Origin: an uncultured Actinomycetes bacterium
GTDB taxonomy: Bacteria; Actinomycetota; CADDZG01; JAHWKV01
Length of the DNA stretch: 64,000 nucleotides
Assembly: GCA_964501265.1 (NCBI GenBank)
Contig: CAZCSK010000008.1
Coordinates: 387-64,386 of the forward strand
Reading direction: 5' to 3'
Below the pieces are notes generated by a model, which searched no databases, was not told the DNA's origin, and saw nothing but the letters and a program-made list of their open reading frames with translations. Positions 14,679 through 63,740 of the stretch are shown here, piece after piece. A program made the position numbers and the translations under genes. Numbering within the stretch: the first letter of the stretch is position 1; each line of letters starts with the position of its first letter.

Positions 14679-14729
14679 GGGGTTCGCAGCTTCTGGCGCG
14701 CGCGGTTCCGTACGTAAGGGGGCTGCTAC
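14679..14729 (+). repeat. Palindromic repeat family, truncated copy (left end + core), intergenic between M23 peptidase and aroC
   Basis: GGGGTTCGCAGCTTCTGGCGCGCGCGGTTCCGTACGTAAGGGGGCTGCTACG. Lacks the right-hand C7-GAA-C6 end. Confidence 0.8.
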
Positions 14730-14763
14730 GTCCACGAGCCTCTCCGCCCAGTACGATGTGTAG

Positions 14764-15993
14764 ATGTTGAGGTTTCTTACTGCAGGGGAATCGCACGGTC
14801 CGGCTCTCAATGTGATCGTAGACGGGATTCCTGCCGGGGTTGGCATCCAGTCAAAGTTTATTGCGGACGAGCTCGCACGCCGCAGGCTCGGCTACGGACG
14901 CGGACCAAGAATGAAGATCGAGCAGGATCAGCTCGAGCTCTTGTCGGGTGTTAGATTCGGTAAGAGCCTAGGGAGCCCGATTTCCTTGATCATCCGCAAT
15001 TCGGAATGGTCGAAGTGGGAGAGAGTTATGTCGGCCGAGGGAGAGCCAGCCGGCAACATCCTTACAGAGCCCCGTCCGGGACATGCAGATCTCGCCGGGA
15101 TGCTCAAATACGGATTCACCGATGCCCGCGATGTTTTGGAGCGCGCGAGTGCCCGTGAAACCGCCGCACGAACAGCGGCCGGTGCGCTTGCCAAGCAATT
15201 GCTTCTTGAATTGGGAATTCAGATCGTGTCGCACGTAGTCGCAATAGGGCAGGTGTCAGCGGGCGGCGCGATTAGACCCCGGCCCGAGGATCAGGAGGCA
15301 ATAGACGCTTCGCAAGTCCGGTGTGCCGACCCCGGGGCGACGGAAGCAATGGTCAATGACATCGAAGCCGCGGGCGCGGCGGGGGACTCACTGGGCGGCG
15401 TCTTCGAAGTCCTGGCGTACGGCGTCCCCCCCGGTCTCGGGTCCTACGTCTCATGGGATCGCAGGCTGGACGGCCGCCTTGCGCAAGCCTTGATGTCCAT
15501 TCCTGCCATCAAGGGTGTGGAGATCGGGGACGCATTCAATGTTGCGCGCCTAAGAGGCTCAGAGGCCCACGACGAGATCTTCTTCGAAGGGGGTGACTAC
15601 GTCCGTCATACCGATCGGGCGGGAGGCTTTGAGGGGGGCATGTCCATCGGCGGTCCCATTCGAGTGCGAGCGGCGATGAAACCGCTGTCGACTCTCAAGC
15701 GCCCCTTGCAGACCGTGGACACCAGGACGAACAAACCGGCCGTTGCCTTCAAGGAGCGGACCGATGTCTGCTCGGTTCCGGCGGCAGCCGTTGTTGGAGA
15801 ATCGGTCGTCGCTCTCACGCTCGCCGACGCTTTACTCGAGAAGTTCGGCGGCGACAGTTTGGGCGACATCAAGCAAGCAATCCAAGCGTATGGCGAACGC
15901 ATCAAATCGACTTCGGGGGATTCGCAGCTTCTGGCGACTCCGACTCCTATCGATAGGCGGGAACTACCCCCCCGAACCCCCCCACAGGCGTGA
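14764..15993 (+). CDS. aroC: Chorismate synthase; C-terminal ~23 aa encoded by a palindromic repeat copy
   Basis: MLRFLTAGESHGPAL and full-length AroC similarity. Shikimate operon context. Confidence 0.9.
   Translation: MLRFLTAGESHGPALNVIVDGIPAGVGIQSKFIADELARRRLGYGRGPRMKIEQDQLELLSGVRFGKSLGSPISLIIRNSEWSKWERVMSAEGEPAGNILTEPRPGHADLAGMLKYGFTDARDVLERASARETAARTAAGALAKQLLLELGIQIVSHVVAIGQVSAGGAIRPRPEDQEAIDASQVRCADPGATEAMVNDIEAAGAAGDSLGGVFEVLAYGVPPGLGSYVSWDRRLDGRLAQALMSIPAIKGVEIGDAFNVARLRGSEAHDEIFFEGGDYVRHTDRAGGFEGGMSIGGPIRVRAAMKPLSTLKRPLQTVDTRTNKPAVAFKERTDVCSVPAAAVVGESVVALTLADALLEKFGGDSLGDIKQAIQAYGERIKSTSGDSQLLATPTPIDRRELPPRTPPQA
15915..15983 (+). repeat. Palindromic repeat family, 69-bp copy forming the aroC 3' end / aroK start region
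   Basis: GGGGGATTCGCAGCTTCTGGCG...CTACCCCCCCGAACCCCCCC. Read in a different frame from the priA/carB copies. Confidence 0.8.
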
Positions 15994-19680: not shown

Positions 19681-19685
19681 GCACC

Positions 19686-20244: not shown

Positions 20245-20454
20245 CTATTTGTTCCCTCGATCTAGGAGGTCTGCGGCCTTTCGCTTGCCATCGTCGACCA
20301 ATTCCTCAGCCTTGTCGCCTAGGTCATTCAATTTGCCTTTGACGCTGGCCCCCGCGCGGTCCAGTTTGCCTCTACGCTTGAGTTCCTCGTCGTCGGTAAG
20401 GTCGCCCACGGCTTCCTTCACCCTGCCCTTGGCTTCGTCGAATTTCTCGCCCAT
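20245..20454 (-). CDS. CsbD-family general stress protein
   Basis: CsbD fold signature KGKLNDLGDKAEE..., 69 aa. Candidate SigB-type promoter upstream. Confidence 0.75.
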   Translation of the reverse strand: MGEKFDEAKGRVKEAVGDLTDDEELKRRGKLDRAGASVKGKLNDLGDKAEELVDDGKRKAADLLDRGNK

Positions 20455-20495
20455 CTCAAAATCTCCTCTCGTTAATGACTCGCATTCAAAAGGGT

Positions 20496-23447: not shown

Positions 23448-23471
23448 GGCTGCTACCCCCCCGTACCCCCC
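23448..23471 (+). repeat. Palindromic repeat family, solo right-end fragment
   Basis: GGCTGCTACCCCCCCGTACCCCCCG. Confidence 0.6.
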
Positions 23472-23482
23472 GCTCTTCTTCA

Positions 23483-23549
23483 GGGGGTTCGCAGCTTCTG
23501 GCGCGCGCGGTTCCGTACGTAGGGGAGCTGCTACCCCCCCGAACCCCCC
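23483..23549 (+). repeat. Palindromic repeat family, full copy overlapping the 3' end (last 7 codons) of the sigma-factor gene
   Basis: GGGGGTTCGCAGCTTCTGGCGCGCGCGGTTCCGTACGTAGGGGAGCTGCTACCCCCCCGAACCCCCC. Confidence 0.85.
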
Positions 23550-24403
23550 TGTCTCAAGAGCGCTAGGCTCTTGGCCAGAAGGCGGGATACGTGCATTTGA
23601 GATATTCCGAGGTCGCGTGCGATCTCGGTTTGCGTCTTTCCCGCAACAAATCGCATATGGAGCACCTGTCGTTCCCTCCGGGGCAATTTTTCCAACAGGT
23701 TCTTTACGCTCGACCAGGCTTCGAAGAGTTCGATGGACTCGTCTGCGGAACCCATCCGCGATATGCGCGCTTCTAGGTCCTCGGCTGCAGGGGTATCCAG
23801 GGAAGCCAGGGAGTAGGCGCCGCTTGCTTCCATAGCATCCAGGATCTCCTCTTCCGAAGTGTTGAGTTGCTTTGCGATCTCAGGAATCGTGGGGGCCCGG
23901 CCAAGCTCTTGAGACATCCCCGGAACGGCCCTGGATATAGACAGTCCCATCTCCTGAAGGCGGCGGGGAACCCTAATTGCCCACCCGTGATCCCTGAAGT
24001 ACCGCTTGATCTCTCCAAGTACCGTCGGAGTCGCATATGTCGAGAACTCGATGCCCCTCGTAAGATCAAACCCTGCAATCGCCTTCAGGAGGCCAATGCT
24101 GCCGACTTGGATCAGGTCGTCGAGAGGTTCTCCTCTGCCCTGAAACTTTCTCGCCAGATACTCCACCAGCGGCATGTGGAGGCGAACCAGTTCGTCCCGG
24201 ACAGACGGCTTTTCATTTAACTGAGCGAAAAGTTGCCTCGTGAGCTCCTTGTCCGTCGCTGCAGATTCCCCCAATGCTAAACGCCGGAACTCTTGAACAT
24301 TCGAATCGCCGGGCTGCCGCCGTCGCTTTCGAACGAGACCTCGCCACTTAGAGCAGTCAGTATTTTCCAAGACAATTCCGACGCGATGCCCACAGGAGGC
24401 CAC
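23531..24403 (-). CDS. Group-3 sigma-70 family sigma factor (SigB/SigF-like); start uncertain; last 7 codons lie in a repeat copy
   Basis: Regions 2-4 present (LIQVGSIGLLKAIAGFD, YATPTVLGEIKRY, ERQVLHMRF..TQTEIARDLGISQMHVSRL). The ORF from ATG 24403 would overlap the upstream gene by 127 nt. Confidence 0.75.
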   Translation of the reverse strand: MASCGHRVGIVLENTDCSKWRGLVRKRRRQPGDSNVQEFRRLALGESAATDKELTRQLFAQLNEKPSVRDELVRLHMPLVEYLARKFQGRGEPLDDLIQVGSIGLLKAIAGFDLTRGIEFSTYATPTVLGEIKRYFRDHGWAIRVPRRLQEMGLSISRAVPGMSQELGRAPTIPEIAKQLNTSEEEILDAMEASGAYSLASLDTPAAEDLEARISRMGSADESIELFEAWSSVKNLLEKLPRRERQVLHMRFVAGKTQTEIARDLGISQMHVSRLLAKSLALLRQGGSGG

Positions 24404-26780: not shown

Positions 26781-26911
26781 CGGGCGTTGCCGTCCAGAGA
26801 CAAACGCCGCCTGAGGCAGATGACTCGGGCGGCGTTTGGCCGTCCGTAACTACTTTGGCCTTCCCCCGATTTGACGGACATCCGAGATACGGGGCACCGA
26901 GATCAGCCGAT

Positions 26912-26937
26912 GTTTGGCACCGGCCGATTCTGGGCAT
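26912..26937 (+). promoter_or_regulatory. Candidate SigB/SigF-type promoter (GTTTGG-N14-GGGCAT)
   Basis: GTTTGGcaccggccgattctGGGCAT, about 38 nt upstream of the second csbD-like gene. Confidence 0.4.
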
Positions 26938-26975
26938 GAATCCATTGGAATCAATCGAACAGAATGGACATCTAG

Positions 26976-27185
26976 ATGGGCGAGAGAATCGACGAAGTCG
27001 CGGGCAGGGCCAAGGAGGCTCTAGGCGATTTGACCGATGACAAGGAACTGCAGCGCGAGGGCAAGCTCGACCGTGCAGGCGCAGACCTTAAGCGGACAAT
27101 CAACGGCATCGGCGACAAAGCTGAGGATGGAGTCGACGCAGCCAAGAGGAAAGTTGAAGACGTTCTAGAACCTCAGAGGAACTAA
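26976..27185 (+). CDS. CsbD-family general stress protein (second copy)
   Basis: 69 aa. About 60% identical to the 20245..20454 product. KELQREGKLDRAGADLKRTINGIGDKAEDG. Confidence 0.75.
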   Translation: MGERIDEVAGRAKEALGDLTDDKELQREGKLDRAGADLKRTINGIGDKAEDGVDAAKRKVEDVLEPQRN

Positions 27186-27198
27186 CACGTAGGATTCG

Positions 27199-27230
27199 AA
27201 AGCCCGCCCTTGAAGGGCGGGCTTTCTCGT
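27199..27230 (+). terminator. Rho-independent terminator
   Basis: GCCCGCCC-TTGAA-GGGCGGGC perfect 8-bp GC stem followed by TTTCTCGT. Confidence 0.75.
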
Positions 27231-27264
27231 ACGCCCGACAGAACTGTGGACCAGGAGCAATGAC

Positions 27265-28845
27265 TTGAGGAACAAATGGCGGTGGGTGGGCGTCCCCATA
27301 CTCTTGCTGCTCATGCTCTTTGCAGCCGCAGCGACCTTCTTACAAGCGGACCTGCTGGCAGCCCCGGACGTCCTATTGATCCTGGGCACATGGGTCGCGA
27401 TCGCCACGGTGATCGCTGTCGCCAAGATCGACAAGCGGTTCGTTCGGTCCCATCAACCAACTACCTGGATCGGCAGGCGTTTCGGGCGGGGACCGCGCGG
27501 CATCGCACTGACGGCGTCCATCCTGCTGACGATCGTATGTGCAATAGCGGTCTACTTGCTCGGACAGCGAGTCAGTGTTGTCACCTCAGAGATTTCGCGC
27601 TTTGACCTTCGCATCGTCGACCTCGCCCATGCCCAAGAAACCATCAACCAACGTCCGGTGATGTCTGCCCTTACCGAGATCGGCCGGGGGCGGATAACGA
27701 CGATCATGCTGGTCCTCGTAGCACTAGGTGCAATGGTCGCGGGTGCAAGACGCGCGGTGTTGTTGATGGTGGCAATTCCGGCGCTTTCGAGTATCGCAGT
27801 GACGACGCTCAAAGCATTTCACTCACGGCCGCGCCCGGCATTTGGGAGTTTGCTCGAGGCTTCTCACAGCTTTCCCAGTGGGCACAGCGCCGGAGGGCTC
27901 GCACTCGCCGCGGGAGTTTTGGTGATGGCCCGCCGGTGTGGCTTCAAACGGACGTGGTTGGCGAGCGGCATCCTGCTTCCACTTGGGCTGTCCATCGGTT
28001 ACAGCCGTGCATATCTAAGTGTTCACTGGACATCTGATGTTGTGGGAGGCTGGCTAGTGGCAGCGGCCATAACCGGGCTAGTGCTAGCGCTGTCATTGGC
28101 TCTTCCTCGTACGGCGGAAAAGTGGGAAGTCAAGCACGGATGGATCGACGCCGGTCTTGGGGCGGCCATTGTCGTGGCATTAATAGTTGGATTTGACGGC
28201 GCGCGTAACTCTTTCCCTGACTTTCCTGCAACTATTCCGGAAAAAGTCGCCGAGCTCGCGGCCGTGCTGAAGAAGCTTCCACCGACCTCCGAGACGCTTC
28301 TGGGCCGCCAGGTAGAACCGGTCAACCTGCTCCTCACCAGCGCCGAAGGGGACCTTCAGGGCACTCTGCGCGACTTGGGCTACACCCGAGCGCTCCATCT
28401 GACGCCTCTGCGCATCATTAATCCTGACCGCTCAGAAGACCTGAAGGAGCTCTCCGTATCCCGCGCTTTCCTGGATACGCGGGTCCAGGATTTCGCGATG
28501 CAAATGCCGTCGCAAAAAGGCCTCTCGCGGCATTACGCCAGATTTTGGAGGCTGCCAGTCTCGCTCCAAAACGGCTGCGACGTTTGGGCAATCAATGCAA
28601 CGTTGCGCGACAGTTCCGGTCGATTGGAGTGGCAATTAATCCCGGAATCTCACATCCGACCTAAAGTGGACGAAGAACGTGAATTTCTTACCATGAAGTT
28701 GGTTGACTCGGGACTATTTCGTTTTTCCGAGCTTCGACGTGTCCGCAACACTCAAAGCGATCGCTCTGCTGGCGGTGATCTTTTCGTTACCGACGGGAAG
28801 ATAGCACTACTCGAAACCCTCGCACCCTGCGAGACCAAGCGGTAG
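27265..28845 (+). CDS. Polytopic PAP2 phosphatase with ~250 aa C-terminal extracytoplasmic domain (LssY_C-like)
   Basis: PAP2 motifs KAFHSRPRP, PSGHS, SRAYLSVHWTSD inside an 8-TM region. Large soluble C-terminal domain. Confidence 0.65.
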   Translation: MRNKWRWVGVPILLLLMLFAAAATFLQADLLAAPDVLLILGTWVAIATVIAVAKIDKRFVRSHQPTTWIGRRFGRGPRGIALTASILLTIVCAIAVYLLGQRVSVVTSEISRFDLRIVDLAHAQETINQRPVMSALTEIGRGRITTIMLVLVALGAMVAGARRAVLLMVAIPALSSIAVTTLKAFHSRPRPAFGSLLEASHSFPSGHSAGGLALAAGVLVMARRCGFKRTWLASGILLPLGLSIGYSRAYLSVHWTSDVVGGWLVAAAITGLVLALSLALPRTAEKWEVKHGWIDAGLGAAIVVALIVGFDGARNSFPDFPATIPEKVAELAAVLKKLPPTSETLLGRQVEPVNLLLTSAEGDLQGTLRDLGYTRALHLTPLRIINPDRSEDLKELSVSRAFLDTRVQDFAMQMPSQKGLSRHYARFWRLPVSLQNGCDVWAINATLRDSSGRLEWQLIPESHIRPKVDEEREFLTMKLVDSGLFRFSELRRVRNTQSDRSAGGDLFVTDGKIALLETLAPCETKR

Positions 28846-28856
28846 CCTTAGAGGCC

Positions 28857-30332
28857 ATGCGCGAACGCAAGCGAAGACATCTTCCGAAACCGGTCCAACG
28901 TTGGGATCTTGCGATGTTTCGGCGACTATCGGGGGTCGAGTCCTCGATTCTCGACAAGACTCTTATGCCCCTAACGCATGCCGCCAATGACTCGCGACTA
29001 TGGATTGTCTTGGCGGCACTAATTGCGACATTTGGAGGAAGATTTGGCCGGCGAGCCGCTCTTCGAGGACTCATGTCACTTGCAATCACATCGGGGATCG
29101 TGAATTTGCCGGCAAAGTATCTTGCACATAGGCATCGGCCGGACGACGAGCGTCGAAGGCGGCGCCGACTGGCCATTCTTCCCGCATCTTCGTCATTCCC
29201 GTCGGGGCACTCCGCCTCCGCCGCCGCCTTTGCCACCGGTGTCGCTTTAGAGTTACCTACTCTCGCGGTGCCGGTGGGAGTGCTGGCAACCGCGACTGGG
29301 TTCTCGCGGGTCTACGCCGGCGTGCATTACCCGCTCGACGTCTTGGTTGGCGCGGCATTGGGAGTGACCGCCGCACTGACAACACGGCGGTGGTGGCCGG
29401 TGGCCCCGCGCGAGACCGCCCAGATGCGACCTACTGTCATGGCAGCAAAAACAAACCCACTCGTCGATGGCAACGGTCTCGTGATCTTTGTAAATCCTTC
29501 TGCCGGCCCAGCATTGTCACGAAACGGAACGTCCCAAATCAAGGACTTGCTTCCCAATGCAGAAGTGATCGAACTGGATGATGACGCTGACCTGGAGGAA
29601 CAGTTGACACATGCAGCCCAGCGATGCCATGCCTTGGGAGTTTGCGGCGGCGACGGTTCCATCAATTGTGGAGCGGAAGTGGCCTTGAAACACGACAAGC
29701 CATACGTGGCTATGCCAGGAGGCACTTTGAACCACCTGGCGCGCGATCTTGGGATCGCGTCTCTCGAAGACGCTGCGACGGCGGTTATCGAGGGCCAGAC
29801 CGCTGCGATGGATGTCGGCCTCATCGATGGCAAACCTTTCCTCAACACAGCAAGTGCTGGCGCTTATGTCGAACTGGTCGACGCCCGCGAGCGGCTGGAA
29901 AGCAGGATCGGCAAGTGGCCGGCGGTCATCGTTGCTCTGGTGACCGTTTTGAGTAAAGGCACACCGCTGCGCGTAGAAATCGATGGAGTGCCCAAGGTAA
30001 TCTGGATGATCTTCATCGGTAACTGCCGTTATCACCCACAGGGATTTGCACCGAGTTGGCGCGAGCGACTCGATGACGGAGATTTAGACCTGCGGATCGT
30101 GAACGGGTCGGAGCCATGGTCTAGGACCCGCTTGGTGCTGGCCGTTATGACTGGGCGGCTGGGACGCAGCCGAGTCTACGAGGCCAGGATCGCGAAACGA
30201 ATCGAGATAAGGTCAATGGAGGGTCCGCTGCGGTTGGCACGCGACGGTGAAACGTTCGATGGTTCAGACTCGTTCCTCATTGAAAAACACAAGGAACGTT
30301 TGACCGTCTATGTCCCGGGCGAGGGGACCTAG
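28857..30332 (+). CDS. Fusion protein: membrane PAP2 phosphatase + DAGK-type lipid kinase catalytic domain
   Basis: PAP2 motifs (RHRPDD, PSGHSA, SRVYAGVHYPLD), then DAGK_cat motifs (LVIFVNPSAG, GGDGSIN, PGGTLNHLARDLG). Confidence 0.7.
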   Translation: MRERKRRHLPKPVQRWDLAMFRRLSGVESSILDKTLMPLTHAANDSRLWIVLAALIATFGGRFGRRAALRGLMSLAITSGIVNLPAKYLAHRHRPDDERRRRRRLAILPASSSFPSGHSASAAAFATGVALELPTLAVPVGVLATATGFSRVYAGVHYPLDVLVGAALGVTAALTTRRWWPVAPRETAQMRPTVMAAKTNPLVDGNGLVIFVNPSAGPALSRNGTSQIKDLLPNAEVIELDDDADLEEQLTHAAQRCHALGVCGGDGSINCGAEVALKHDKPYVAMPGGTLNHLARDLGIASLEDAATAVIEGQTAAMDVGLIDGKPFLNTASAGAYVELVDARERLESRIGKWPAVIVALVTVLSKGTPLRVEIDGVPKVIWMIFIGNCRYHPQGFAPSWRERLDDGDLDLRIVNGSEPWSRTRLVLAVMTGRLGRSRVYEARIAKRIEIRSMEGPLRLARDGETFDGSDSFLIEKHKERLTVYVPGEGT

Positions 30333-30976: not shown

Positions 30977-30996
30977 AAGTTAGCATTCTCCTTAAG

Positions 30997-31692: not shown

Positions 31693-31812
31693 CGAGGTCT
31701 AGAACCCTGGTCTCAATTTCGCGTGCCTTTAAACGGAATACCACTTTCACCACGGAGGGTCAGCCCTGCGGGTGTGTTAAAGTAGCTCTCGATCTGCTCA
31801 ACCTTTAAGACT

Positions 31813-46475: not shown

Positions 46476-46549
46476 AAGTATCTCTTTTGCGGCCGCATTA
46501 TGTACTAAGGATTTGGATATGGCGTCAGGGACGCCGAAAGGGGACAGAA

Positions 46550-46756: not shown

Positions 46757-46849
46757 CCTTTGCTACCACCTAGATTGGCAAAGTTGTTCTGAGAGGACGA
46801 TCGTGGCCACGACCCGGCGGCCGAAGCTCGGACGAACGTATTCGAAAGT

Positions 46850-48546: not shown

Positions 48547-49001
48547 CTCGGGCTCGACGGGAAGAAGATTCGGGCCTTGCGGCATTGGAGTTCCTCTTTG
48601 TTTATCTTCTGGTTTTCTCGCTCCTAGCCCTAAGCGTCCCCCTGGTTATCGCCATGCAAGAGCGCGTTCGCCTCGAACGGACGGCCGGGCACACAGCACG
48701 ATTTGCTACGGCGGCACCCGACCGTCCCCGTTTTGGTTCGGCTACAAGAAGGCCTTCAGTTGAAGATGTGGAGGCCGAGGCCTTTCGGGCGTATAGTCTG
48801 ATCGGCGCCTCGGATCCTGGGGCCAACTTTGATGTAGTTGTGGGCAATGATCCCAGAACGGCCCTTCCGGGCGATCAGATCACGATCACAATCATTAAGA
48901 CAGTCGACCTGGGGCTCATCGGAGCGCTGATGAATGTGATAGGCGTAACGCAGAGTTCAGATATTGAGATGACCGTCACCGCTGTGGGACGGCAGGAATA
49001 G
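48543..49001 (+). CDS. TadE/TadF-like pseudopilin
   Basis: DSGLAALEFLFVYLLVFSLLAL, a TadE-like N-terminus. Confidence 0.6.
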   Translation: MTRARREEDSGLAALEFLFVYLLVFSLLALSVPLVIAMQERVRLERTAGHTARFATAAPDRPRFGSATRRPSVEDVEAEAFRAYSLIGASDPGANFDVVVGNDPRTALPGDQITITIIKTVDLGLIGALMNVIGVTQSSDIEMTVTAVGRQE

Positions 49002-49008
49002 GGGAGAA

Positions 49009-49800
49009 ATGAGAAAACTCAGCGTCACCGTAGCGGTTGGTTTGATTGTTGCATTGGTCGGAGGTGGGTTGGTATTCGCATACGGCCGGAGTGTGGATCA
49101 AAGGATCGCGGACGGAAAGAAGACTGTGGATGTGCTTGTTGCGCTGAAAGCCCTGGCCGCCGGCACCCCCTCGATCGCGCTCGACAAAGACACCCAACTA
49201 AGAAAGATTCCGCAGGCCTATCTTCCTGAGGGCTTCATCAAGGATCTTAACGAGGTCGCCGGCCAGGTTCTTGTGGGGCCACTTCCTGCAGGCGCGAGTC
49301 TCAACCGTACGCATTTCGGATCCCCGGCAACAGTCGGCGCCGTGGAGCCGACGGAGGGGAACGTGGCCTTGGCTGTGCAGGTCGGCATCTCGCCTGGCGT
49401 CGCGCGTTATGTACGCGTTGGCAGTTTCGTCGATGTCTTCGTAACGTACTCGGGAACGGGAGGCGGGGTGGGGCTGGGTCAGCAGGGCAAGCCTTCTCAA
49501 TCGGAGAACCGCACCAAGCTGTTCGTGACCGGGGTCAAGGTGCTTGCGGTCTCGATAGCCGAACCTAGGGTTGAAGAGCAGACCGAAGGGGGCTCCGGCA
49601 ACCAAAACCGCCAGGCTCAAAGCCGGGAATCGGGATCAAGCCAAGTGATTGCCATCTTGGATGTTGACCCTATTACGGCTGAAAGAATAGTCAACGCCGT
49701 TTCGATCGGAGAACTGTATCTTGCGCTGTCCAAGCAGAACGCCGGCCACAAGACGCCAACCGGAGTGGTGCCGGACGATGTTGTTACCTCCAACAGGTGA
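49009..49800 (+). CDS. cpaB: Flp pilus assembly protein CpaB/RcpC
   Basis: N-terminal TM helix, SAF-like domain. Position ahead of cpaE/tadZ. Confidence 0.7.
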   Translation: MRKLSVTVAVGLIVALVGGGLVFAYGRSVDQRIADGKKTVDVLVALKALAAGTPSIALDKDTQLRKIPQAYLPEGFIKDLNEVAGQVLVGPLPAGASLNRTHFGSPATVGAVEPTEGNVALAVQVGISPGVARYVRVGSFVDVFVTYSGTGGGVGLGQQGKPSQSENRTKLFVTGVKVLAVSIAEPRVEEQTEGGSGNQNRQAQSRESGSSQVIAILDVDPITAERIVNAVSIGELYLALSKQNAGHKTPTGVVPDDVVTSNR

Positions 49801-51098
49801 TATCGCTTGGCGTCGTTGACCGCACGGGAGTCTTGCTTTCCGTAGCGGAGTCAGCTGCAAAGTCGGTTAGTCCAGAGATGCAAGTTCGATCTATGGGAGA
49901 GCCCACGGAATTGGGGCCTTCTTCGGGCCCCGCCGACATCCTTTTGCTGGGACCCGAAGAACTCACGCCCGCCGGAATACGGCGCTCCCAGTCGTGGCGC
50001 GCTCAGCATCCTGCCAGTCTTTTGATCGCAGTCGTCCCGAGAGGATCTCTAACCACAGCCGAGCTGGGGGGCCTCGGCGTCAATCACGTCATCCAAGGCA
50101 AATTCAGCGAGGCCAAGGCCGTCAAGACCCTCCTGCATGCGGTCGAACAACTCGATCGCCTCGCCCAGGAGGCAAGCGAGTGGCGATCTCTTGAGCAAGT
50201 CGAGGTGGAGGAGGTTGATGTTTCCGAATCCATCATCGAGGACGCTAAACAGCCCCGCGAGCCAGTCTTGGTTTCCATTGCCTCCCCTACCGGCGGCAGC
50301 GGCAAGACTTTCTACGCATGCAACCTGGCCGGGGCTTTGGCGGCGGTGGGCCTCAAGGTTTTAATCGTCGACCTCGATCTTCAATTTGGCGAGGTTGCCG
50401 TTGGTCTTCGTCTGCAACACCCGTATTCCATCTATGACGGACTCTACGACAGCAGGGGAACTCCGCTCCCGGTAGAGGCCCTGGCCGAGCATGTCGATGA
50501 ACTCGTGTGCCACCACGAATTGGGTTTCGATGTTCTCACCGCTCCCAAGAATCCAGAACTCGCCGATTACATCGGCGCTGCAGATGCGGCCCGCGTTTTA
50601 GACGTTGTTGTTCCGCGGTATGAGGTCATCATTGCTGATACACCCCCTTCGCTGAATGAGGTAGTTCTGACCGTCCTGGACCGGAGCGACCTTGTGGTTG
50701 TCCTTGCAACCCCAGATGTTCCTAGTCTTAAGAACCTGGGCGTGTTTCTCGACACACTTCACCGGCTCCAGGTCGTGGATAGCCACATCCAACTGATCCT
50801 AAACAAGGTGGAAAGTGACATTGGCCTGGACGTCAAGGAAATTCAGGGCGCTTTCTCAGATCGATTCGTGGGTTTCATTCCCCAATCCCGAATAGTGTCG
50901 CGGGCACTAAATACCGGAAAGCCGATAGTAGCTTTCGCGCCCCGCTCAGATGTTGGCGTCGAATTAATGAAGAGCTTCGCCGCCGTATTTCCGTCCGAGG
51001 CGCTTCGCATGAAGGCACCCAAGATCGCAGGGAAGAAAAAGTCTTGGAACCCATTCGCCAGATGGCGGCGTAAGATCGGAACGAAAGGAGTGCTATGA
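49797..51098 (+). CDS. cpaE: Pilus assembly protein CpaE/TadZ (receiver-like + ParA/MinD-type ATPase)
   Basis: Deviant Walker A SPTGGSGKT and MinD-like fold following an N-terminal receiver-like domain. Confidence 0.75.
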   Translation: MISLGVVDRTGVLLSVAESAAKSVSPEMQVRSMGEPTELGPSSGPADILLLGPEELTPAGIRRSQSWRAQHPASLLIAVVPRGSLTTAELGGLGVNHVIQGKFSEAKAVKTLLHAVEQLDRLAQEASEWRSLEQVEVEEVDVSESIIEDAKQPREPVLVSIASPTGGSGKTFYACNLAGALAAVGLKVLIVDLDLQFGEVAVGLRLQHPYSIYDGLYDSRGTPLPVEALAEHVDELVCHHELGFDVLTAPKNPELADYIGAADAARVLDVVVPRYEVIIADTPPSLNEVVLTVLDRSDLVVVLATPDVPSLKNLGVFLDTLHRLQVVDSHIQLILNKVESDIGLDVKEIQGAFSDRFVGFIPQSRIVSRALNTGKPIVAFAPRSDVGVELMKSFAAVFPSEALRMKAPKIAGKKKSWNPFARWRRKIGTKGVL

Positions 51099-52504
51099 AA
51101 CTTTCTGAGAGACTGACTCGCGAGAAGGAAAAGGAAGCCAAACCCAAGAAGAACTCCGGTCTCAAGCAAAAGGATGCTATTAAACTGACCCCGGCTGCCG
51201 GTCAGGCCTCTCCCATGACTGGACGGCGTTCGGCTGATTCGGGGGATATGGATGGCCTGAAGGCCCGGCTTAGAACCGCTGTGGTGGCCGAGTTGGGCCC
51301 ACGTCTTTCGCGGGGCGCCGTTGATGAGTCGACGCTCCGGCAGCGTGTCACGGTCCACCTCGACGATCTCATTCGTCAGTCGCGCGTCACCATTGGTCCG
51401 CAAGAGCGACATTCCTTCATGGAATCGCTGTTGGCGGACATGTTGGGCTGGGGTCCCCTCGAGACGCTCATGGCCGACCCCGACGTAACGGAAGTGATGT
51501 GTAATTCCTACGACGAGGTGTGGATCGAGCGCAACGGGAGAATCGAACCGACGGAAGTCAAGTTTCCCAACCCCGGCGCGTATCGTCAGGTGATCGATCG
51601 CATGCTTGCAAGCGTCGGACGCCGCATCGACGAGGCATCGCCTATGGCCGATGGTCGTCTTCCCGACGGCAGTCGCATCAACGCGATCATTCCTCCGCTC
51701 GCGACGCGGGCCCCCGTCCTAACGGTGCGAAGGTTTCGCGAGGTGCCGTACACGGTTGCAGACATGATCACCATGGAGTCGATCTCCGCTGATGCAGCGG
51801 TATTCATAGAGGCCGCCGTTCGCTCCAAAATCAACATGCTGATCAGCGGCGGATCGGGTTCGGGGAAAACGACGCTTCTAAACGTTGTTTCATCTTTTAT
51901 TCCCGACACCGAGCGCGTCGTTACAATCGAAGATGCCGCGGAGTTGCGACTTGGGCAGCCACACGTGGTTGCGCTCGAGGCTCGCCCACCCAATATCGAA
52001 GGCGCGGGCCAGGTGACAATTCGAGATCTTGTTCGCAACTCCCTGCGGATGAGGCCGGACCGAATCATCGTGGGAGAGGTTCGTGGGGCGGAGGCCCTGG
52101 ACATGCTCCAAGCGATGAACACGGGTCACGAGGGTTCGATAACCACCGTCCATGCCAACTCCCCTCGCGACGCCTTGGCCCGTGTCGAAACGATGACTCT
52201 CATGGCGGGGATTGAACTGCCGCTCCGGGCCGTGAGAGATCAGGTCGCCAGCGCTCTGGAACTTCTTTTGCACCTCGAGCGTCTGCCGACGGGCCAAAGA
52301 GTCCTTTCCAGCATTACCGAGATTCAAGGCCGTGAGGGCGAGACCATCACTTTGCAGGAGGTATTTACACGACGAGGCAAACTCCTGGAGGCAACGGGTC
52401 TGCGGCCGAAAGTCGCCGAGAAAATCGCTGAGCGCGGCGGTACGTTGCCGAGCACGATCTTTCGGGGCAGAGCCTCATCCGCGGTTGCAAGAAGGGCCAG
52501 ATAG
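51095..52504 (+). CDS. cpaF: Tad pilus secretion ATPase CpaF/TadA
   Basis: Walker A GGSGSGKTT, Asp/His boxes, and TadA-like N-terminus. Confidence 0.85.
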   Translation: MKLSERLTREKEKEAKPKKNSGLKQKDAIKLTPAAGQASPMTGRRSADSGDMDGLKARLRTAVVAELGPRLSRGAVDESTLRQRVTVHLDDLIRQSRVTIGPQERHSFMESLLADMLGWGPLETLMADPDVTEVMCNSYDEVWIERNGRIEPTEVKFPNPGAYRQVIDRMLASVGRRIDEASPMADGRLPDGSRINAIIPPLATRAPVLTVRRFREVPYTVADMITMESISADAAVFIEAAVRSKINMLISGGSGSGKTTLLNVVSSFIPDTERVVTIEDAAELRLGQPHVVALEARPPNIEGAGQVTIRDLVRNSLRMRPDRIIVGEVRGAEALDMLQAMNTGHEGSITTVHANSPRDALARVETMTLMAGIELPLRAVRDQVASALELLLHLERLPTGQRVLSSITEIQGREGETITLQEVFTRRGKLLEATGLRPKVAEKIAERGGTLPSTIFRGRASSAVARRAR

Positions 52505-52510
52505 AAAACG

Positions 52511-53467
52511 ATGAGCGCGCTCGCTGGGGTTCTGGTCACGGCCGGCCTATTCGGAATGTGGCTGGCGCAGGGCCTGAAGCAGCGCCGCCGCGTGTCCAAC
52601 CTGAAGGTTCTTCTCGAATCTGCCTATATGGAACAGGCCGGCACCGCCGAGCATCAGTCCGCAGACATCCAAAAGCTCCTTGCAAGGACCGGCCTTGCCG
52701 CCGAGTATCTTTTTGCGAGGGCGAGTTTTTTCCAAAAGTTGAAGTCCAAGATCGAGAGAAGCAATTGGACCGTCACTGCCGGTGAGTTTTTGGCGGTCTC
52801 GGCGCTGCTCGGGGCCGTAGGCGCTTTTATAGGATTCCTCGGGACGTCGTCGCCGTTGGCGGTACTGCTTGCGGTCGTTGGGGCTGCGTCTCCTTACATA
52901 TTCGTAAGCCGCGCGATCGCAAGCCGCAGGTCAAGATTCGAAGGTCAGTTGCCAGAGGTTCTGGACCTCATGGCCGCGAGTCTGGAATCGGGGGCGGGAG
53001 TACCTCAGGCCCTGGAACTGGTGGTGGCCGAAGCAGACAACCCGTCGGCTGAGGAGTTCGCAAGGGTGCTGTCGGCCACGCGCCTCGGCAATCCCATTGT
53101 CGAGGCACTGAAAGTCATGTCCGAAAGGCTTGAATCGCGCGATCTGAACTGGACCATTCAGGCGATCATCGTGCAGCAACGCACCGGCGGCAAACTTGCC
53201 GACGTCCTTCGCATCGTTGCCGGTTTCATGCGGGGAAGAGAGGAAGTCAAACGCGAACTGGCAGCGCTCACAGCAGAAGGGAAGCTTTCGGCGTTCATCC
53301 TGGGTGGTCTTCCTTTCGGTCTCGCGATATTCCTTTTGATCGTAAATCCGGATTATCTAACTCCGCTTTTTACAACGGCGATCGGAATTGCAATGCTTGT
53401 GATCACCGGAACTCTCATGCTCATCGGCTTCTTCATCATGTCAAGGATCATCAAGATTGATGTCTGA
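52511..53467 (+). CDS. tadB: Tad pilus platform protein TadB (T2SS-F family)
   Basis: GspF-like membrane domain. Confidence 0.75.
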   Translation: MSALAGVLVTAGLFGMWLAQGLKQRRRVSNLKVLLESAYMEQAGTAEHQSADIQKLLARTGLAAEYLFARASFFQKLKSKIERSNWTVTAGEFLAVSALLGAVGAFIGFLGTSSPLAVLLAVVGAASPYIFVSRAIASRRSRFEGQLPEVLDLMAASLESGAGVPQALELVVAEADNPSAEEFARVLSATRLGNPIVEALKVMSERLESRDLNWTIQAIIVQQRTGGKLADVLRIVAGFMRGREEVKRELAALTAEGKLSAFILGGLPFGLAIFLLIVNPDYLTPLFTTAIGIAMLVITGTLMLIGFFIMSRIIKIDV

Positions 53468-54365
53468 AATTGTAATTCTGTCGGGACTGCTTTTCGGCGC
53501 TGGGGCCGGTCTTGTGGGATTCGTCTTGGCGCGTACCCGACAGGTCGTCACGGCCGCTCCGACGCATATCGAACTGGCTCTCGGGGAACGGGCGATCCAG
53601 GAAGAGACTCCGCAAGTTGGCTTTGCGTACCGCATTGTGGAACCCCTCCTGAAGGTCGCTGCCCGGATAGTGAGACGGCTTTCTCCAGTCAAAAGAATCG
53701 ATTTGATTCGCCGGCGACTCACATACGCCGGCATGGAGGCGACAATGTCGGTCGAAGGGATACTCGCGTACAAGGCCGCAAGCGCGGTCGCTGGCTTCCT
53801 CTTCGGTTTCGTCTTTAATCCGGGCCGAATTCCGGCCCTGGCCTGGGGGATCATCCTCGCCTTTCTAGCCTCCTTTGTGCCCGACATCATCCTTGACTCA
53901 AGGGCGAAGGCCCGGCAGGGCGAGATTGCGCGGGACCTTCCCGAAGCCCTCGACCTGGTCGCTATCACGGTCGAAGCTGGACTTGGATTGGAACAAGCTC
54001 TGGAGATTGTCACAGAGAACATGAAAGGCCCGTTCGCGCAAGAACTGTCGCGCCTTCTGCGAGAGATCGAGCTTGGCGTCCCGCGCCGGGTCGCGCTAAA
54101 CGGGCTTCGGGACCGTACCGACGTGTCCGAGCTGTCCGCCTTCATCGTGGCCCTGATCCAGGCCGACATCATGGGGATGGCGATCGCTCAGGTACTAAAA
54201 ATCCAGGCTGAGCAAGTCCGCCTTAAGAGACGACAAAGGGCCCGCGAGCAGGCCGCGAAGACTCCCGTCAAGATCTTGTTTCCCCTGATCTTCGGTATCT
54301 TCCCAGCTATCTTCACCGTCACCATCGGCCCCGGAATAATCAACATCATCGACGCCCTGTTCTAA
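53457..54365 (+). CDS. tadC: Tad pilus platform protein TadC (T2SS-F family)
   Basis: Second GspF-like membrane protein directly after tadB. Confidence 0.75.
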   Translation: MMSEIVILSGLLFGAGAGLVGFVLARTRQVVTAAPTHIELALGERAIQEETPQVGFAYRIVEPLLKVAARIVRRLSPVKRIDLIRRRLTYAGMEATMSVEGILAYKAASAVAGFLFGFVFNPGRIPALAWGIILAFLASFVPDIILDSRAKARQGEIARDLPEALDLVAITVEAGLGLEQALEIVTENMKGPFAQELSRLLREIELGVPRRVALNGLRDRTDVSELSAFIVALIQADIMGMAIAQVLKIQAEQVRLKRRQRAREQAAKTPVKILFPLIFGIFPAIFTVTIGPGIINIIDALF

Positions 54366-54431
54366 TCGCTGAACATGCATGAGCGCCCGCCTATAATCGG
54401 GCAACCTCCCATCTAGGCCAAGGAGCCCGTA

Positions 54432-55639: not shown

Positions 55640-57466
55640 GGTATAGTCGGCCCGCTCACTGCCGAGGTAATAGTCGACGTCTCCGCGTGGGGGCTCGATC
55701 GTACGCTGACATATGAGATCCCTGAAAAACTCATCGGCAAACTGGTCATCGGGTCCATAGTCCGGGTTCCGCTGCGCGGCCGTCGAACACGAGGGTGGGT
55801 CGTCGCGCTCGACGCGAGTCAGAGTCTGTCGGAGGATCTGTCACCGATTGCGTCGGTGAGTGGGCGCGGTCCGGTGTTCGATGAGGCGCTGCTTGCGATG
55901 GCACGCCGACTTGCGCGTCGCTACGTCCATCCCTTATCGACCTTTCTTTCCCTGTTCACTCCGCCGCGTCTGCAGCGCGGAGCGTTTGACGCTCCTGCGC
56001 CGCAGTTACACACCGGACCGCTACACGTTACAGTGATGCGCCCGAGCCTTCGTGGTGACATCGTCGAACGCTACTCTGCCGAGATCTCCGCCGGCCTGGA
56101 CAAGGGCAAGGGGACGATCGTAGCGGTTCCCGAAGTGCGAGAGGGCTCGCGGGTTCTTGAATCACTCGCCGCGAAGTTCCCGAACGACATTGCAATAGTT
56201 CACAGCGGCCTCGACGATGCCGAACGCTCACGCAACATTTGGAATGTGGCTACCGGGAAGGCAAAGGTGGTGCTGGGTGGACGGGCCTCACTTTTCGTTC
56301 CGCCGCTGCACCTCGGCAATATCATCATTCACGATGAGGACGATAGATCTTTCAAGGATCAACGAACCCCCTACTACGACGCGCGCGAAGTAGCGATCGA
56401 AAGGGCCAGGTTCACGGGTGCTTCCGTGCTGCTGGTGAGTCGCACTCCTTCATTGACAAGCATGCACGAATCAAGCTGGGAGTTGGAGGAACCCGATCGC
56501 ACGACCGAGCGCGCCGCCTGGCCAATCGTCGAGGTTGTGAGGCCACCGAGAACCGGAATGGCTCGCCGCGCAATTGCCGCAATAATCGAAACCCGAAGGC
56601 GCGGGCAGCAATCCCTGGTGCTTTTGCCTCGCGCTCACAGCACGAAAGCGGGCCTTGGGCCGGAGGCCGTGGTGGCATTTCTCGAACGCGTCGTCCCTGG
56701 AGCCCGAATAAGCAGGGCCGATCGCCCCGCCCTGGGCCAGCGTCCCGGAGCCCTTGTGGAGGCACTGAAGGCAGATGTCATCGTTGCAACTGAGGCTGCG
56801 CTTGCCGAGGTGCAGCGGCCGCCCGTCTCTCTAGCGGTCGCCCTGGGGGTTGACACTTATTTTCAACGTCCGAGCCTTGGCGCGGCGGAGGACACGTTCA
56901 GCATTCTTTACAGCCTCGCGACGCTGGTCGCCGGCATTCAGCCCAAAGGACGGCTTGTCGTGGAAACTGAAAGCTCAGACCACCATGTCATCCAGGCACT
57001 GGTACGCGGCGACTATCGATACTTCGCCTCCCACGAACTGGAAGTTCGTAAGGAGTCTTCAAATCCGCCGTTTGTCTCGCTGGTCCGCTTGCGGACTAAC
57101 TCAGCACTAGTCGACCTCGGGGGGGTAGCAGCTTCTAGCGCGCGGGGGTCCGTACGTAAGGGGGCTGCTACCCCCCCGAACCCCCCACTTGATTTCGGGG
57201 GGTTCGCAGCTTCTGGCGCGCGCGGTTCCGCACGTAGGGGGGCTGCTACCCCCCCGAACCCCCCTACCTTGGAAGGTAAGGATTTGATGGAACAGTTGCG
57301 CGGTCTGCCGGGCGTAGAAGTGCTCGGCCCCATTGAGGGCGAAGGGGGAGGGGCCGAGATTCTGCTCAAGGTTACTGACCTCGAACCGATCCTCGACCAA
57401 TTGGGTAGCATCGTATCGCTCCACAAGGGCGACATCCACGTAGAGATGGATCCAAGGCAATGGTGA
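55640..57466 (+). CDS. priA: Primosomal protein PriA homologue with degenerate Walker A and two tandem repeat-derived insertions; start codon uncertain
   Basis: N-terminal VDVSAWGLDRTLTYEIPE... and DEDD/HDED box are present. The expected GxGKT is replaced by TVMRPSLRGD. The frame is open from 55640, but the first ATG is at 55856. Confidence 0.7.
   Translation, partial: GIVGPLTAEVIVDVSAWGLDRTLTYEIPEKLIGKLVIGSIVRVPLRGRRTRGWVVALDASQSLSEDLSPIASVSGRGPVFDEALLAMARRLARRYVHPLSTFLSLFTPPRLQRGAFDAPAPQLHTGPLHVTVMRPSLRGDIVERYSAEISAGLDKGKGTIVAVPEVREGSRVLESLAAKFPNDIAIVHSGLDDAERSRNIWNVATGKAKVVLGGRASLFVPPLHLGNIIIHDEDDRSFKDQRTPYYDAREVAIERARFTGASVLLVSRTPSLTSMHESSWELEEPDRTTERAAWPIVEVVRPPRTGMARRAIAAIIETRRRGQQSLVLLPRAHSTKAGLGPEAVVAFLERVVPGARISRADRPALGQRPGALVEALKADVIVATEAALAEVQRPPVSLAVALGVDTYFQRPSLGAAEDTFSILYSLATLVAGIQPKGRLVVETESSDHHVIQALVRGDYRYFASHELEVRKESSNPPFVSLVRLRTNSALVDLGGVAASSARGSVRKGAATPPNPPLDFGGFAASGARGSARRGAATPPNPPTLEGKDLMEQLRGLPGVEVLGPIEGEGGGAEILLKVTDLEPILDQLGSIVSLHKGDIHVEMDPRQW
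57119..57186 (+). repeat. Palindromic repeat family, first of two tandem copies in frame inside priA
   Basis: GGGGGGGTAGCAGCTTCTAGCGCGCGGGGGTCCGTACGTAAGGGGGCTGCTACCCCCCCGAACCCCCC. Confidence 0.85.
57197..57264 (+). repeat. Palindromic repeat family, second tandem copy in frame inside priA (closest to consensus)
   Basis: GGGGGGTTCGCAGCTTCTGGCGCGCGCGGTTCCGCACGTAGGGGGGCTGCTACCCCCCCGAACCCCCC. Copy-to-copy offset is 78 bp (26 codons). Confidence 0.85.
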
Positions 57467-60539: not shown

Positions 60540-60559
60540 CGCTCATGGTGCATACTCTT

Positions 60560-60695
60560 TGTAAGAAGTCTTCGGGGCACGGTGAAATTCCGGACCGGCG
60601 GTCATAGCCCGCGAACCTCTCGATAACGAGGGGCCGACCCGGCTTTATTCCGGGGCCGACAGTTACAGACTGGATGGGAGAAGACTTTTGGCGGC
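60560..60695 (+). promoter_or_regulatory. FMN riboswitch (RFN element) upstream of ribD
   Basis: Conserved RFN segments CTTCGGGGCACGGTGAAATTCCGGACCGGCGGT, AGCCCGCGAAC, CCGGGGCCGACAGTTACAGACTGGATGGGAGAAGAC. A GC hairpin follows. Confidence 0.8.
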
Positions 60696-61845: not shown

Positions 61846-62433
61846 ATGTTTACGGGAATTATTGAAAGCATCGGAGTGATCGATGTGATCTCGGCCCGTG
61901 CACTCACAGTCAAAACAGACCTCGAGCCGCTCAATCCGGGTGAGTCGATCGCGGTCGAGGGAGTCTGCCTCACGGTGACCTCCTGGGAATCCAGCGGGTT
62001 CACCGTCGAACTCTCAGAAGAAACGATGCGCCGGACAACTCTTGGCGAATTGATCGCGGGCCGGACTGTTAATCTCGAACGCCCATTGGCCGCCTCAGCC
62101 CGATTTGGCGGCCACATAGTCCAGGGCCATGTCGACGGCGTTGGGAGGATTGTCGAGATTATCGGATTCGAAGGATCTCAGGAAGTGTCGATCGAAGTCC
62201 CTGCGAATCTCCTTCGTTATCTGGTGGTCAAGGGTTCGGTCGCGGTCGATGGAGTGAGCTTGACTATCTCTGGATTGGACGGCGCTATCTTCAAGGTGGC
62301 CCTGATTCCTCACACAATGCTCGCTTCGACCTTCGGCGGTAAGGCGCAGGGCGATCCCGTCAATATCGAGGTCGACATTATTGCTAAGTATGTTGAGCGC
62401 CTCTTGGGCGCTCGAAAGGAGGATCAAGCATGA
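61846..62433 (+). CDS. ribE: Riboflavin synthase alpha subunit
   Basis: MFTGIIE start and duplicated lumazine-binding halves. Confidence 0.85.
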   Translation: MFTGIIESIGVIDVISARALTVKTDLEPLNPGESIAVEGVCLTVTSWESSGFTVELSEETMRRTTLGELIAGRTVNLERPLAASARFGGHIVQGHVDGVGRIVEIIGFEGSQEVSIEVPANLLRYLVVKGSVAVDGVSLTISGLDGAIFKVALIPHTMLASTFGGKAQGDPVNIEVDIIAKYVERLLGARKEDQA

Positions 62434-63740
62434 CTTTTGCTACCGTCGAAGAAGCCGTCGAAGAACTTCGTCTTGGCCGAATGATCATCGTAGTCGACGA
62501 TGAGAGCCGCGAGAACGAAGGCGATTTCGTCATGGCGGCTGAGACTGTCACGCCCGAGACGATCAACTTCATGGCCCGCGAGGCGGGTGTTCCGATCTGT
62601 GTGCCCATGACTAAGTCCAGGCTTGACGAATTGGGCCTGCCCATGATGGTGTCGGAGAACACATCGCCGCACGGCACGGCCTTCACGGTGTCCGTTGACA
62701 TTAAGATTGCAGGCCACACAGGATCCAGCGCCTTCGACCGGGCCGCAACGATTCGCGCTCTTGCCGATCCCGCCAGTCTCGCATCAGACTTCGTCCGCCC
62801 TGGACATGTCTTCCCGCTGCGCGTGGCGCAAGGTGGAGTATTAAAGAGGTGGGGCCACACCGAAGCCGCCGCCGATCTCGCCACGCTCGCCGGCTTCGCG
62901 CCCGTAGGAGTTGTCGCTGAGATCATGGATTCGAATGGCGAAATGGCGCGCCTTCAACAGCTCCAAGAGCTCGCCAATCGCCACGGATTGAAGGTACTAA
63001 TGATCAAGGACTTGATTGCCTACAGAAGTCACCGAGAGAAATTGATCGAGCGAGTTGCATCGGCCACAATGCCCACCGGGTTCGGCGACTTCACGTGTAT
63101 CGCCTACCAGTCCAAGATCGATGGACAGGAGTATGTTGCCTTCGTCAAGGGCGAGGTCGCGGGGCAGAAGGATGTTCTGGTGCGGGTGCACTCACAATGT
63201 CTCACTGGAGATGTTTTTCAGTCCGCCCGGTGCGACTGCGGCTATCAGTTGCGCGAGGCGATGCGGCTGATCGATGCAGAAGGGCAGGGAGTTGTCCTCT
63301 ACATCATGGCGCACGAGGGTCGCGGTATCGGACTCATGCACAAGATTCGGGCTTACAAACTTCAGGAGGAGGGCCTCGATACGGTGGAAGCAAACGAGCA
63401 GTTGGGCTTTGCTGCCGATCAGCGCGATTACGGGATTGGGGCGCAGGTGCTTGCCGATTTGGGAATCACATCCATGCGTCTTCTCACTAACAGCCCCCAG
63501 AAGTACGCCGGGGTCGAGGGCTATGGCTTGTCGATCACAGAGCGCGTTCCACTTCAAAGCACGGCCACGGAGCAGAACATTGCGTATCTTCGGACCAAGC
63601 GCGACCGCCTCGGGCACTTCCTCGAAGGCTTGGATGAGACAGCTGCGGACGACCTCTCGGGGGGGTTCGGGGGGGTAGCAGCGGCCAACGGAGACGACTT
63701 GAGCGCGCCAGAAACTGCGAACCCCCCGAAGTCAACTTGA
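62430..63740 (+). CDS. ribBA: Bifunctional DHBP synthase / GTP cyclohydrolase II; C-terminal ~24 aa from a reverse-oriented repeat copy
   Basis: DHBP synthase N-half (DENRENEGDF). GCH-II C-half with CxCGYQ zinc site. Confidence 0.9.
   Translation: MTFATVEEAVEELRLGRMIIVVDDESRENEGDFVMAAETVTPETINFMAREAGVPICVPMTKSRLDELGLPMMVSENTSPHGTAFTVSVDIKIAGHTGSSAFDRAATIRALADPASLASDFVRPGHVFPLRVAQGGVLKRWGHTEAAADLATLAGFAPVGVVAEIMDSNGEMARLQQLQELANRHGLKVLMIKDLIAYRSHREKLIERVASATMPTGFGDFTCIAYQSKIDGQEYVAFVKGEVAGQKDVLVRVHSQCLTGDVFQSARCDCGYQLREAMRLIDAEGQGVVLYIMAHEGRGIGLMHKIRAYKLQEEGLDTVEANEQLGFAADQRDYGIGAQVLADLGITSMRLLTNSPQKYAGVEGYGLSITERVPLQSTATEQNIAYLRTKRDRLGHFLEGLDETAADDLSGGFGGVAAANGDDLSAPETANPPKST
63659..63727 (-). 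repeat. Palindromic repeat family, 69-bp copy in reverse orientation forming the ribBA C-terminal tail
   Basis: GGGGGGGTTCGGGGGGGTAGCAGCGGCCAACGGAGACGACTTGAGCGCGCCAGAAACTGCGAACCCCCC. Ends match the reverse complement of the canonical ends; the core has diverged. Confidence 0.8.

Follow-up and report, generated by a model that had tools for sequence, protein, structure and literature searches.

To our knowledge, it is mainly in Rickettsia that essential genes have been documented to receive frequent in-frame insertions of selfish DNA, and the mechanism has remained unexplained since 2000. A review of MITEs (PMC10969869) singles out the Rickettsia palindromic elements (RPEs; Ogata et al. 2000) because they are inserted in frame into metabolic genes with unusual frequency. 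Repetitive extragenic palindromic (REP) and REPIN elements are mobilised by RAYT transposases of the Y1/HUH type (PMC3116915, PMC3337134). Here, we describe a family of palindromic repeats in a 64,000-nt stretch of DNA from an uncultured Actinomycetes bacterium (contig CAZCSK010000008.1), hereafter called the window; all positions are those of the whole stretch. We consider it probable, at roughly 0.8, that the family consists of short, non-coding, non-autonomous mobile DNA elements of 77-78 nt, which resemble RPEs in their behaviour. The family is undescribed so far, though the kind of element is known. An earlier note on this DNA had proposed in-frame palindromic repeats of this kind in housekeeping genes, and this overall interpretation is supported.

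The gene order in the window is of the actinobacterial type. It contains aroC-aroK-aroB, efp, a gene for a SigB-like sigma factor together with one for an RsbU-type phosphatase, carA-carB, metK, a priA-like gene (ORF, i.e., open reading frame, 55856-57466), def, and ribD-ribE-ribBA-ribH downstream of a flavin mononucleotide (FMN) riboswitch. With a G+C content of ~58%, the window is only moderately GC-rich, whereas the genome had been described earlier as high-GC. A repeat search grouped six direct copies and one inverted copy as one family, and an nhmmer profile built from the window copies found the seven with E-values of 1e-17 to 2e-22. Six matches with at most two mismatches were obtained for the right arm (23 nt) as well as for the left arm (19 nt), as compared with none in 100 shuffles. 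The motif GGGGGGTTCG by itself barely exceeds chance (15 matches vs. 9 expected) and is no evidence alone. The repeat family is thus confirmed as real and far beyond chance in the window. The copies and related features are the following:

14669-14745, plus strand: decaying intergenic copy (nhmmer E = 1e-17) with left arm and centre intact
15907-15983, plus strand: copy at the 3' end of aroC, read in sense frame 1 as the last ~25 codons of the gene
23449-23471, plus strand: solo right arm, GCTGCTACCCCCCCGTACCCCCC, directly upstream of a full copy
23474-23549, plus strand: full copy at the stop codon of the sigma-factor gene, antisense to this SigB-like gene
37298-37315, minus strand: solo right arm in carB, GGGGGGTTCGGGGGGGTA on the plus strand, encoding GGFGGV
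38687-38764, plus strand: full carB copy, in frame (sense frame 3), residues ~877-903
57111-57186, plus strand: first tandem copy in the priA-like gene, in frame, with the variant left arm GGGGGGGTAGCAGC
57188-57264, plus strand: second tandem copy in the priA-like gene, in frame, with a period of 78 nt
60544/60545, no strand: site that is empty in the window and filled by a 77-nt copy in a related genome (contig L025)
63659-63736, minus strand: copy at the 3' end of ribBA, in antisense orientation, forming a C-terminal tail and followed by the ribH start

The seven full or near-full copies that had been counted before are all present, and the solo right ends in carB and at 23449-23471 are real as well. 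In contrast, a further end reported within carA, G7-CTC-G7 at 35799-35815, marks the beginning of another repeat, ~58 nt long, which is triplicated in the related genome. The 69-mer consensus proposed for the element matches nothing in the window at up to three mismatches because it contains one extra G, and the family was rebuilt from its arms.

Further copies come from two sources. The relative, ENA ERZ27311206, is represented by contig L024, which is ~92% identical in DNA to window positions 21241-44408, and by L025, which is syntenic with positions 41962-64000. Two contigs of this relative contain seven further copies. The density is seven per 56 kb in the relative and seven per 64 kb in the window, or ~110-125 copies per Mb. 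In addition, searching the JGI metagenome contigs for the right arm yielded 22 contigs, nearly all from sample Ga0183260, none of which is syntenic with the window. The window, the two ENA contigs and the 22 JGI contigs provided 41 distinct copies, which align without any indel.

The alignment defines the unit as 5'-(C/T)TGA(C/T)T-TC-G6-TTCG-CAGC-TTCTGGCGCGC-(~20 variable nt)-GCTG-CTA-C7-GA(A/G)-C6/7-3'. Its length is 77-78 nt, since the conserved (C/T)TGA(C/T)T-TC lies 5' of the G-run, and a 78-nt copy corresponds to 26 codons. The 67-69 bp, or ~23 codons, given in the earlier note is therefore too short. Tandem copies are arranged head-to-tail with a period of 78 nt, or of 75 nt in one array. 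Conservation starts 8 nt 5' of the G-run, and the information in the left flank reaches 6 nt past the TC, whereas the right flank of the 41 copies has no information content. The left and right arms show mean pairwise identities of 92% and 90%, respectively, as compared with 56% for the 20-nt centre and 26-28% for the flanks. The terminal inverted repeats are GGGGGGTTCG with CGAACCCCCC and CAGC with GCTG, and they are accompanied by a 9-nt bulge and an unpaired 5' extension. Between the arms, CAGC pairs with GCTG, and either TTC-G6 can pair with C7-GAA or G6-TTCG with CGAA-C6. The G-run can pair with either C-run, the arms forming a long imperfect hairpin, and the hairpin potential suspected earlier is borne out by predicted folds in DNA (-15 to -26 kcal/mol) as well as RNA (-31 to -46 kcal/mol), with z-scores of -0.6 to -4.4. 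A separate reading of the element as an RNA gene is unsupported. Covariation is absent because the arms are invariant, and no fixed-register hairpin was found in the centre. In Rfam, the sole match in the window is the FMN riboswitch, with nothing credible on the repeat element.

Within the window, one copy is intergenic, one lies at the sigma-factor stop, two form C-terminal tails (AroC and RibBA) and the other three lie inside CarB (one) and the PriA-like protein (two); five of the seven are wholly within ORFs. The intergenic copy, whose right arm has decayed to CTACGTCCACGAGCCTCTCC, sits between the gene for an M23 peptidase (end at 14652) and aroC (start at 14764). In AroC, the Pfam chorismate synthase domain stops at residue 358 of 409, and the tail derived from the repeat ends in TSGDSQLLATPTPIDRRELPPRTPPQA directly before the stop codon. 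The stop/start overlap with the following gene is kept behind the AroC tail (GTGA at 15990-15993, shared with aroK) and also behind the RibBA tail, which ends in GGFGGVAAANGDDLSAPETANPPKST and a stop. The SigB-like gene (23531-24403, minus strand) takes its TAG stop from the CTA of the element at 23531-23533, and the copy sets the C-terminus of the protein, which ends in LRQGGSGG.

As the earlier note had stated, the reading frame is preserved in the genic copies, and the translations of CarB, PriA, AroC and RibBA agree in this. The copies in CarB and PriA use one sense frame, that in AroC the other sense frame, and that in RibBA an antisense frame. Of the six frames, four are open as a rule across the copies, and both orientations are found, so that the tolerance of at least two frames claimed before holds and extends further. 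The peptides encoded in the open frames are of the types ...AATPPNPP, LTSGGSQLLA...LLPPRTP, GGFGGVAAP... and GVRGGSS...ARSCEPPE. The two closed frames stop immediately, at the TGA of the left extension or at the TAG that is complementary to the CTA. A selected Gly/Ala/Pro linker module would explain why such peptides recur in several proteins, but this DNA is found between genes as well, and within genes it is read in four frames and in either orientation, which argues for a DNA element rather than a protein module. An assembly artefact would be the other trivial explanation. However, orthologous copies were recovered in separate assemblies (NCBI, Logan, ENA and JGI), and they sit within contigs, between diverged unique flanks. 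Logan contigs of run SRR6868923 reproduce the window sequence with no differences, including an independent contig that is identical at 15907-15983, and they terminate within copies at 14687 and 23494, as expected of a genuine multi-copy repeat, which should break an assembly. We consider a protein module or an artefact hardly credible.

The insert in CarB lies between the positions of residues ~877 and ~888 of E. coli CarB. In an AlphaFold2 model of the protein (mean predicted local distance difference test score, pLDDT, 83; predicted template modelling score 0.86), residues 878-899 have a pLDDT below 50 (34-38 for the insert) and are coil, with no secondary structure. The insert is thus modelled as a disordered loop. 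Among the JGI contigs, internal in-frame copies are found in DnaE (two, one per orientation), an Lhr helicase, a biotin carboxylase and a DUF1028 protein. Those in DnaE, Lhr and biotin carboxylase fall between Pfam domains, whereas that in the DUF1028 protein is inside the domain. A four-frame peptide profile run against 5.8 billion sequences recovered eight proteins, which are to be taken as examples and not as a count, because short low-complexity matches are weak. The element was found in these at the N-terminus, the C-terminus or in the interior, e.g., in CcmH-like, PurS-like and CsoR-like proteins.

Most JGI copies are not located deep in genes but at the junctions of co-directional genes or at gene 3' ends. 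This placement could indicate that the repeats are structured elements that serve the host, by stabilising mRNA, by pausing or terminating transcription or by coupling translation, and that the intragenic copies are by-products. Such roles have been proposed for REP, ERIC and MIRU sequences. The very stable RNA hairpins, the ~90% conservation of the arms with a drifting centre, and the use of the TGA or TAG of the element as a gene stop would all fit. Nevertheless, relative to neighbouring genes the two orientations are about equally frequent (~13 sense, 19 antisense), the hairpin has no trailing T-run, and no covariation supports a specific RNA fold. A host role is also hard to picture for the copies within CarB, PriA, DnaE and Lhr, and copies appear and vanish between close relatives at conserved operons. 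The preference for junctions, moreover, is equally expected if disruptive insertions are purged. Altogether, a primary function for the host is an unlikely explanation.

Evidence of mobility comes from the comparison of related genomes. None of the 29 distinct CarB orthologues aligned has the 27-residue segment, not even those of 94% and 88% identity, the former of which is encoded on L024. The window is 81 nt longer than L024 at this site, and the full carB copy is a recent insertion. Likewise, PriA-like homologues of ~50% identity have neither of the two copies. Hence the extra segments in CarB and PriA are indeed insertions, as had been proposed from the window alone. The one clean case is the reverse one: L025 has a 77-nt copy, in minus orientation, precisely between the bases that correspond to window positions 60544 and 60545 (GACGCTC|ATGGTG). 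Comparison of the filled and the empty site reveals zero duplicated bases, and the insert includes the CTGATT extension. Direct repeats common to the flanks were not found in any of the 41 copies either. The filled site lies 20 nt upstream of the FMN riboswitch (60564-60689, 110 bits) that precedes the rib operon.

At the sigma-factor gene, the window has a remnant plus a full copy, where L024 has a similar right-arm remnant only. The ribBA copy is orthologous in the window and the relative, and the two are 97% identical, centre included. Such identical centres rule out a hypermutating centre, which had been considered as well, and the variability of this segment thus reflects old lineages of the element. 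Two copies are found in the priA-like gene of both genomes. In their centres and left extensions, the copies of the window do not match those of the relative, and the two copies of the relative are identical to one another, which points to turnover or gene conversion within the arrays. CsoR-like proteins of more than 90% identity differ at their N-terminus, where the element is missing, reduced to a short remnant, or present in ~1.5 or two copies. Finally, where the carB gene of the window has the solo right arm at 37298-37315, the relative has ~20 nt that are unrelated to it; the net difference in length is only 3 nt, and the flanks are near-identical. The arm looks like a short conversion patch or the scar of an imprecise, frame-restoring excision. 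Together, these comparisons demonstrate gain and loss of copies among close relatives, at ~92% DNA identity, and the presence/absence polymorphism that was predicted for this family thus exists.

Several of these observations might also be explained if the repeats spread chiefly by recombination or replication slippage between G- and C-runs, through gene conversion and tandem expansion, with no dedicated transposase. The tandem arrays with a period of 75-78 nt and variable copy number, the identity of the two priA copies in the relative, which are unlike those of the window, and the solo right arms adjoining full copies are in line with such a process, as is the solo end in carB, a patch that replaced host sequence with the length almost unchanged. 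Slippage, however, cannot put a complete 77-nt unit at a non-homologous site, as observed at GACGCTC|ATGGTG and in carB, and the dozens of dispersed sites in unrelated genes require a route of insertion. As the chief mode of spread it is, in our opinion, very improbable.

The family appears to have a narrow distribution. The exact 23-nt right arm has zero matches in 185,579 GTDB species genomes, and the syntenic DNA of the 11 nearest GTDB relatives, 148 kb in all, contained no copy. The nearest GTDB genomes are metagenome-assembled genomes (MAGs) of Actinomycetota/Actinomycetes with PriA-like proteins of ~49% identity, and the best named matches to CarB, at no more than 75% identity, are also from Actinomycetota MAGs. 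Among 1.84 billion representative proteins scanned, there was one further true carrier, which has two internal copies.

The repeats would be moved in trans by a putative enzyme that recognises the arms of the hairpin. The lack of a target-site duplication at the one clean insertion and the asymmetric ends mean that the element is not a classical cut-and-paste miniature inverted-repeat transposable element (MITE), and the RPE-like behaviour that the earlier note described holds. Combined with the hairpin, these two features would favour a single-strand mechanism with an HUH/Y1 enzyme, of the REP-RAYT or insertion sequence (IS) 200/IS605-like type, over a DDE cut-and-paste mechanism. The head-to-tail arrays with their 75-78 nt period and the solo right arms left as remnants are observed traits on which this scheme draws.

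The persistence of copies in coding DNA has reasons that are in part directly visible and in part inferred. A 78-nt copy, as a whole number of codons, would keep the reading frame, and the G- and C-runs would code for Gly-Gly and Pro-Pro whatever the frame. Four usually open frames and two that close at once may confer tolerance in a gene-dense genome. Given these properties, selection would leave copies between genes, as tails, and in linkers and loops. The surviving C-terminal tails would be short ones that keep the stop/start overlaps of the operon, and the surviving internal copies would be those in linkers or disordered loops of large enzymes. A more far-reaching proposal is that the element itself has been selected for translational neutrality, with its 26 codons, its Gly-Gly and Pro-Pro ends and its immediate stops, and is moved by an undescribed single-strand transposase that leaves no duplication. 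This proposal is tentative, and we rather doubt it. If true, such an element would be able to spread through the coding sequences of a compact genome and give rise to new linkers and tails in its core enzymes.

Several points weigh against the main explanation. Neither a transposase nor any other mobilising gene turned up; a crude six-frame screen of ~330 kb for HUH motifs was negative. The only IS-like gene seen, a tnpB of IS605 type in the relative (L026), lacks the ends of the element. Only one insertion site is clean, i.e., 60544/60545, the junction in carB being blurred by divergence and C-runs. A conserved target motif was not found in the 41 copies, apart from a weak excess of C-runs 2-3 nt upstream; the clean site has CACCAT. 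Orientation shows no consistent bias with respect to GC skew or gene direction (10 vs. 16), so that an insertion into single strands coupled to replication is not supported. That the arms are strongly conserved could also reflect a function for the host. Finally, the insert-bearing proteins are predicted from ORFs and models.

Some neighbouring features deserve mention. The TnpB gene (L026, 972-2387; 471 residues) stands alone and adjoins rpmE, and its flanks are without arms of the 78-nt repeat. The priA-like ORF lacks the N-terminal 3'-DNA-binding domain (PF17764) present in homologues of ~50% identity, and neither its product nor that of the relative's copy matches a Pfam family; in this lineage, the gene seems to have been truncated or to evolve rapidly. 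The repeat at carA is a second, unrelated palindrome of ~58-75 nt, GCTGAAACGGGGAGGCGCGACCCC...GGAGGACGGGGTCGCGCAGGTCCGAGCA, with a 10-bp stem and no Rfam match at gathering score. It is found at 35798-35885 and, inverted, at 7246-7292 in the window, and at L024 9625-9828, L025 17355-17419, L026 9058-9130 and L003 1650-1709. At the 3' end of carA, one unit in the window corresponds to three tandem units in the relative, which alters the C-terminus of CarA (an ORF of 425 residues in the window vs. 392 in the relative). Between carA and carB, at ~35950-36055 (L024 9785-10000), lies a small lysine-rich ORF ending in KRQTAKKTAVKKKAAAKGVARKAAK, which is conserved in the relative and called there as a gene of 71 residues.

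Two segments of the window are missing from the relative and contain no mobility genes. One (26857-31753, 4.9 kb, in a region that is otherwise ~92% identical) encodes PAP2 phosphatases and LssY-like, diacylglycerol-kinase-like and VTT-domain proteins. A 196-nt inverted repeat, 70% complementary, links 20261-20456 with 26974-27169. The other segment (46350-54385, 8 kb) encodes a Tad/Flp pilus set (CpaB, a TadZ-like ATPase, CpaF and TadB/TadC) and also holds two ORFs without a Pfam match.

The family may be compared with several described systems. Classical MITEs, such as Correia, ERIC and Nezha, are likewise small and non-autonomous, have terminal inverted repeats and occasionally form in-frame fusions with ORFs (PMC10969869). 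The present element differs in its unpaired 5' extension and in the one clean insertion without target-site duplication, and no parent IS with the same ends occurs in the sequence examined. With respect to the fixed 4-5 nt target of IS200/IS605 elements, there is here only the weak C-run excess and the single CACCAT site. REP and REPIN elements share with our family the two inverted arms, an imperfect hairpin with a variable spacer, the absence of a target-site duplication, a high copy number, vertical inheritance in a narrow lineage and solo-arm remnants. However, REPs are extragenic by definition, whereas here many copies are in translated frames, as illustrated by the five of seven within ORFs in the window. 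In addition, the arms of the present element are offset and not simple inverted copies, and the HUH-motif screen of ~330 kb revealed no RAYT gene.

Mycobacterial interspersed repetitive units (MIRUs), which Supply et al. are said to have described in 1997, reportedly are tandem units of ~46-101 bp, including a 77-bp class, that lie between genes in operons at a few dozen loci and whose reading frames overlap neighbouring stops and starts. The actinobacterial host, the similar unit size, the variable tandem arrays at gene junctions in operons and the stop/start overlaps are common to both. The copies described here, in contrast, are mostly single, dispersed palindromes, many of them intragenic; this comparison is by description only.

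In behaviour, the family matches the RPEs. They, too, are short palindromic repeats without coding capacity of their own, inserted in frame in unrelated housekeeping genes as well as in non-coding DNA (PMC10969869), and in neither case is the mobilising enzyme known. In-frame palindromes are found here in many unrelated genes (those for CarB, the PriA-like protein, AroC, RibBA, DnaE, Lhr, biotin carboxylase and the DUF1028 protein), and the insert sites appear to be tolerated by the fold, i.e., a coil with pLDDT below 50 in CarB and positions between Pfam domains in others. The unit is smaller, 77-78 bp vs. ~100-150 bp, and the host belongs to the Actinomycetota and is probably free-living, in contrast to the obligate intracellular alphaproteobacterium in which RPEs reside. 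Furthermore, the present element has homopolymeric G/C arms, built-in stops in its two closed frames and frequent head-to-tail arrays. The family represents an independent case in another phylum, with a smaller element whose gain and loss are visible at ~92% genome identity, which offers a practical way of tracing the mobilising enzyme by comparative genomics. The system also permits testing whether such inserts seed new protein loops. Its practical effects include broken assemblies, inflated ORFs at gene ends and G6-C7 mutation hot spots in core genes. The resemblance to RPEs would be a functional one, with no relatedness in sequence to be expected, as the two families are compared by what they do and not by their sequences.

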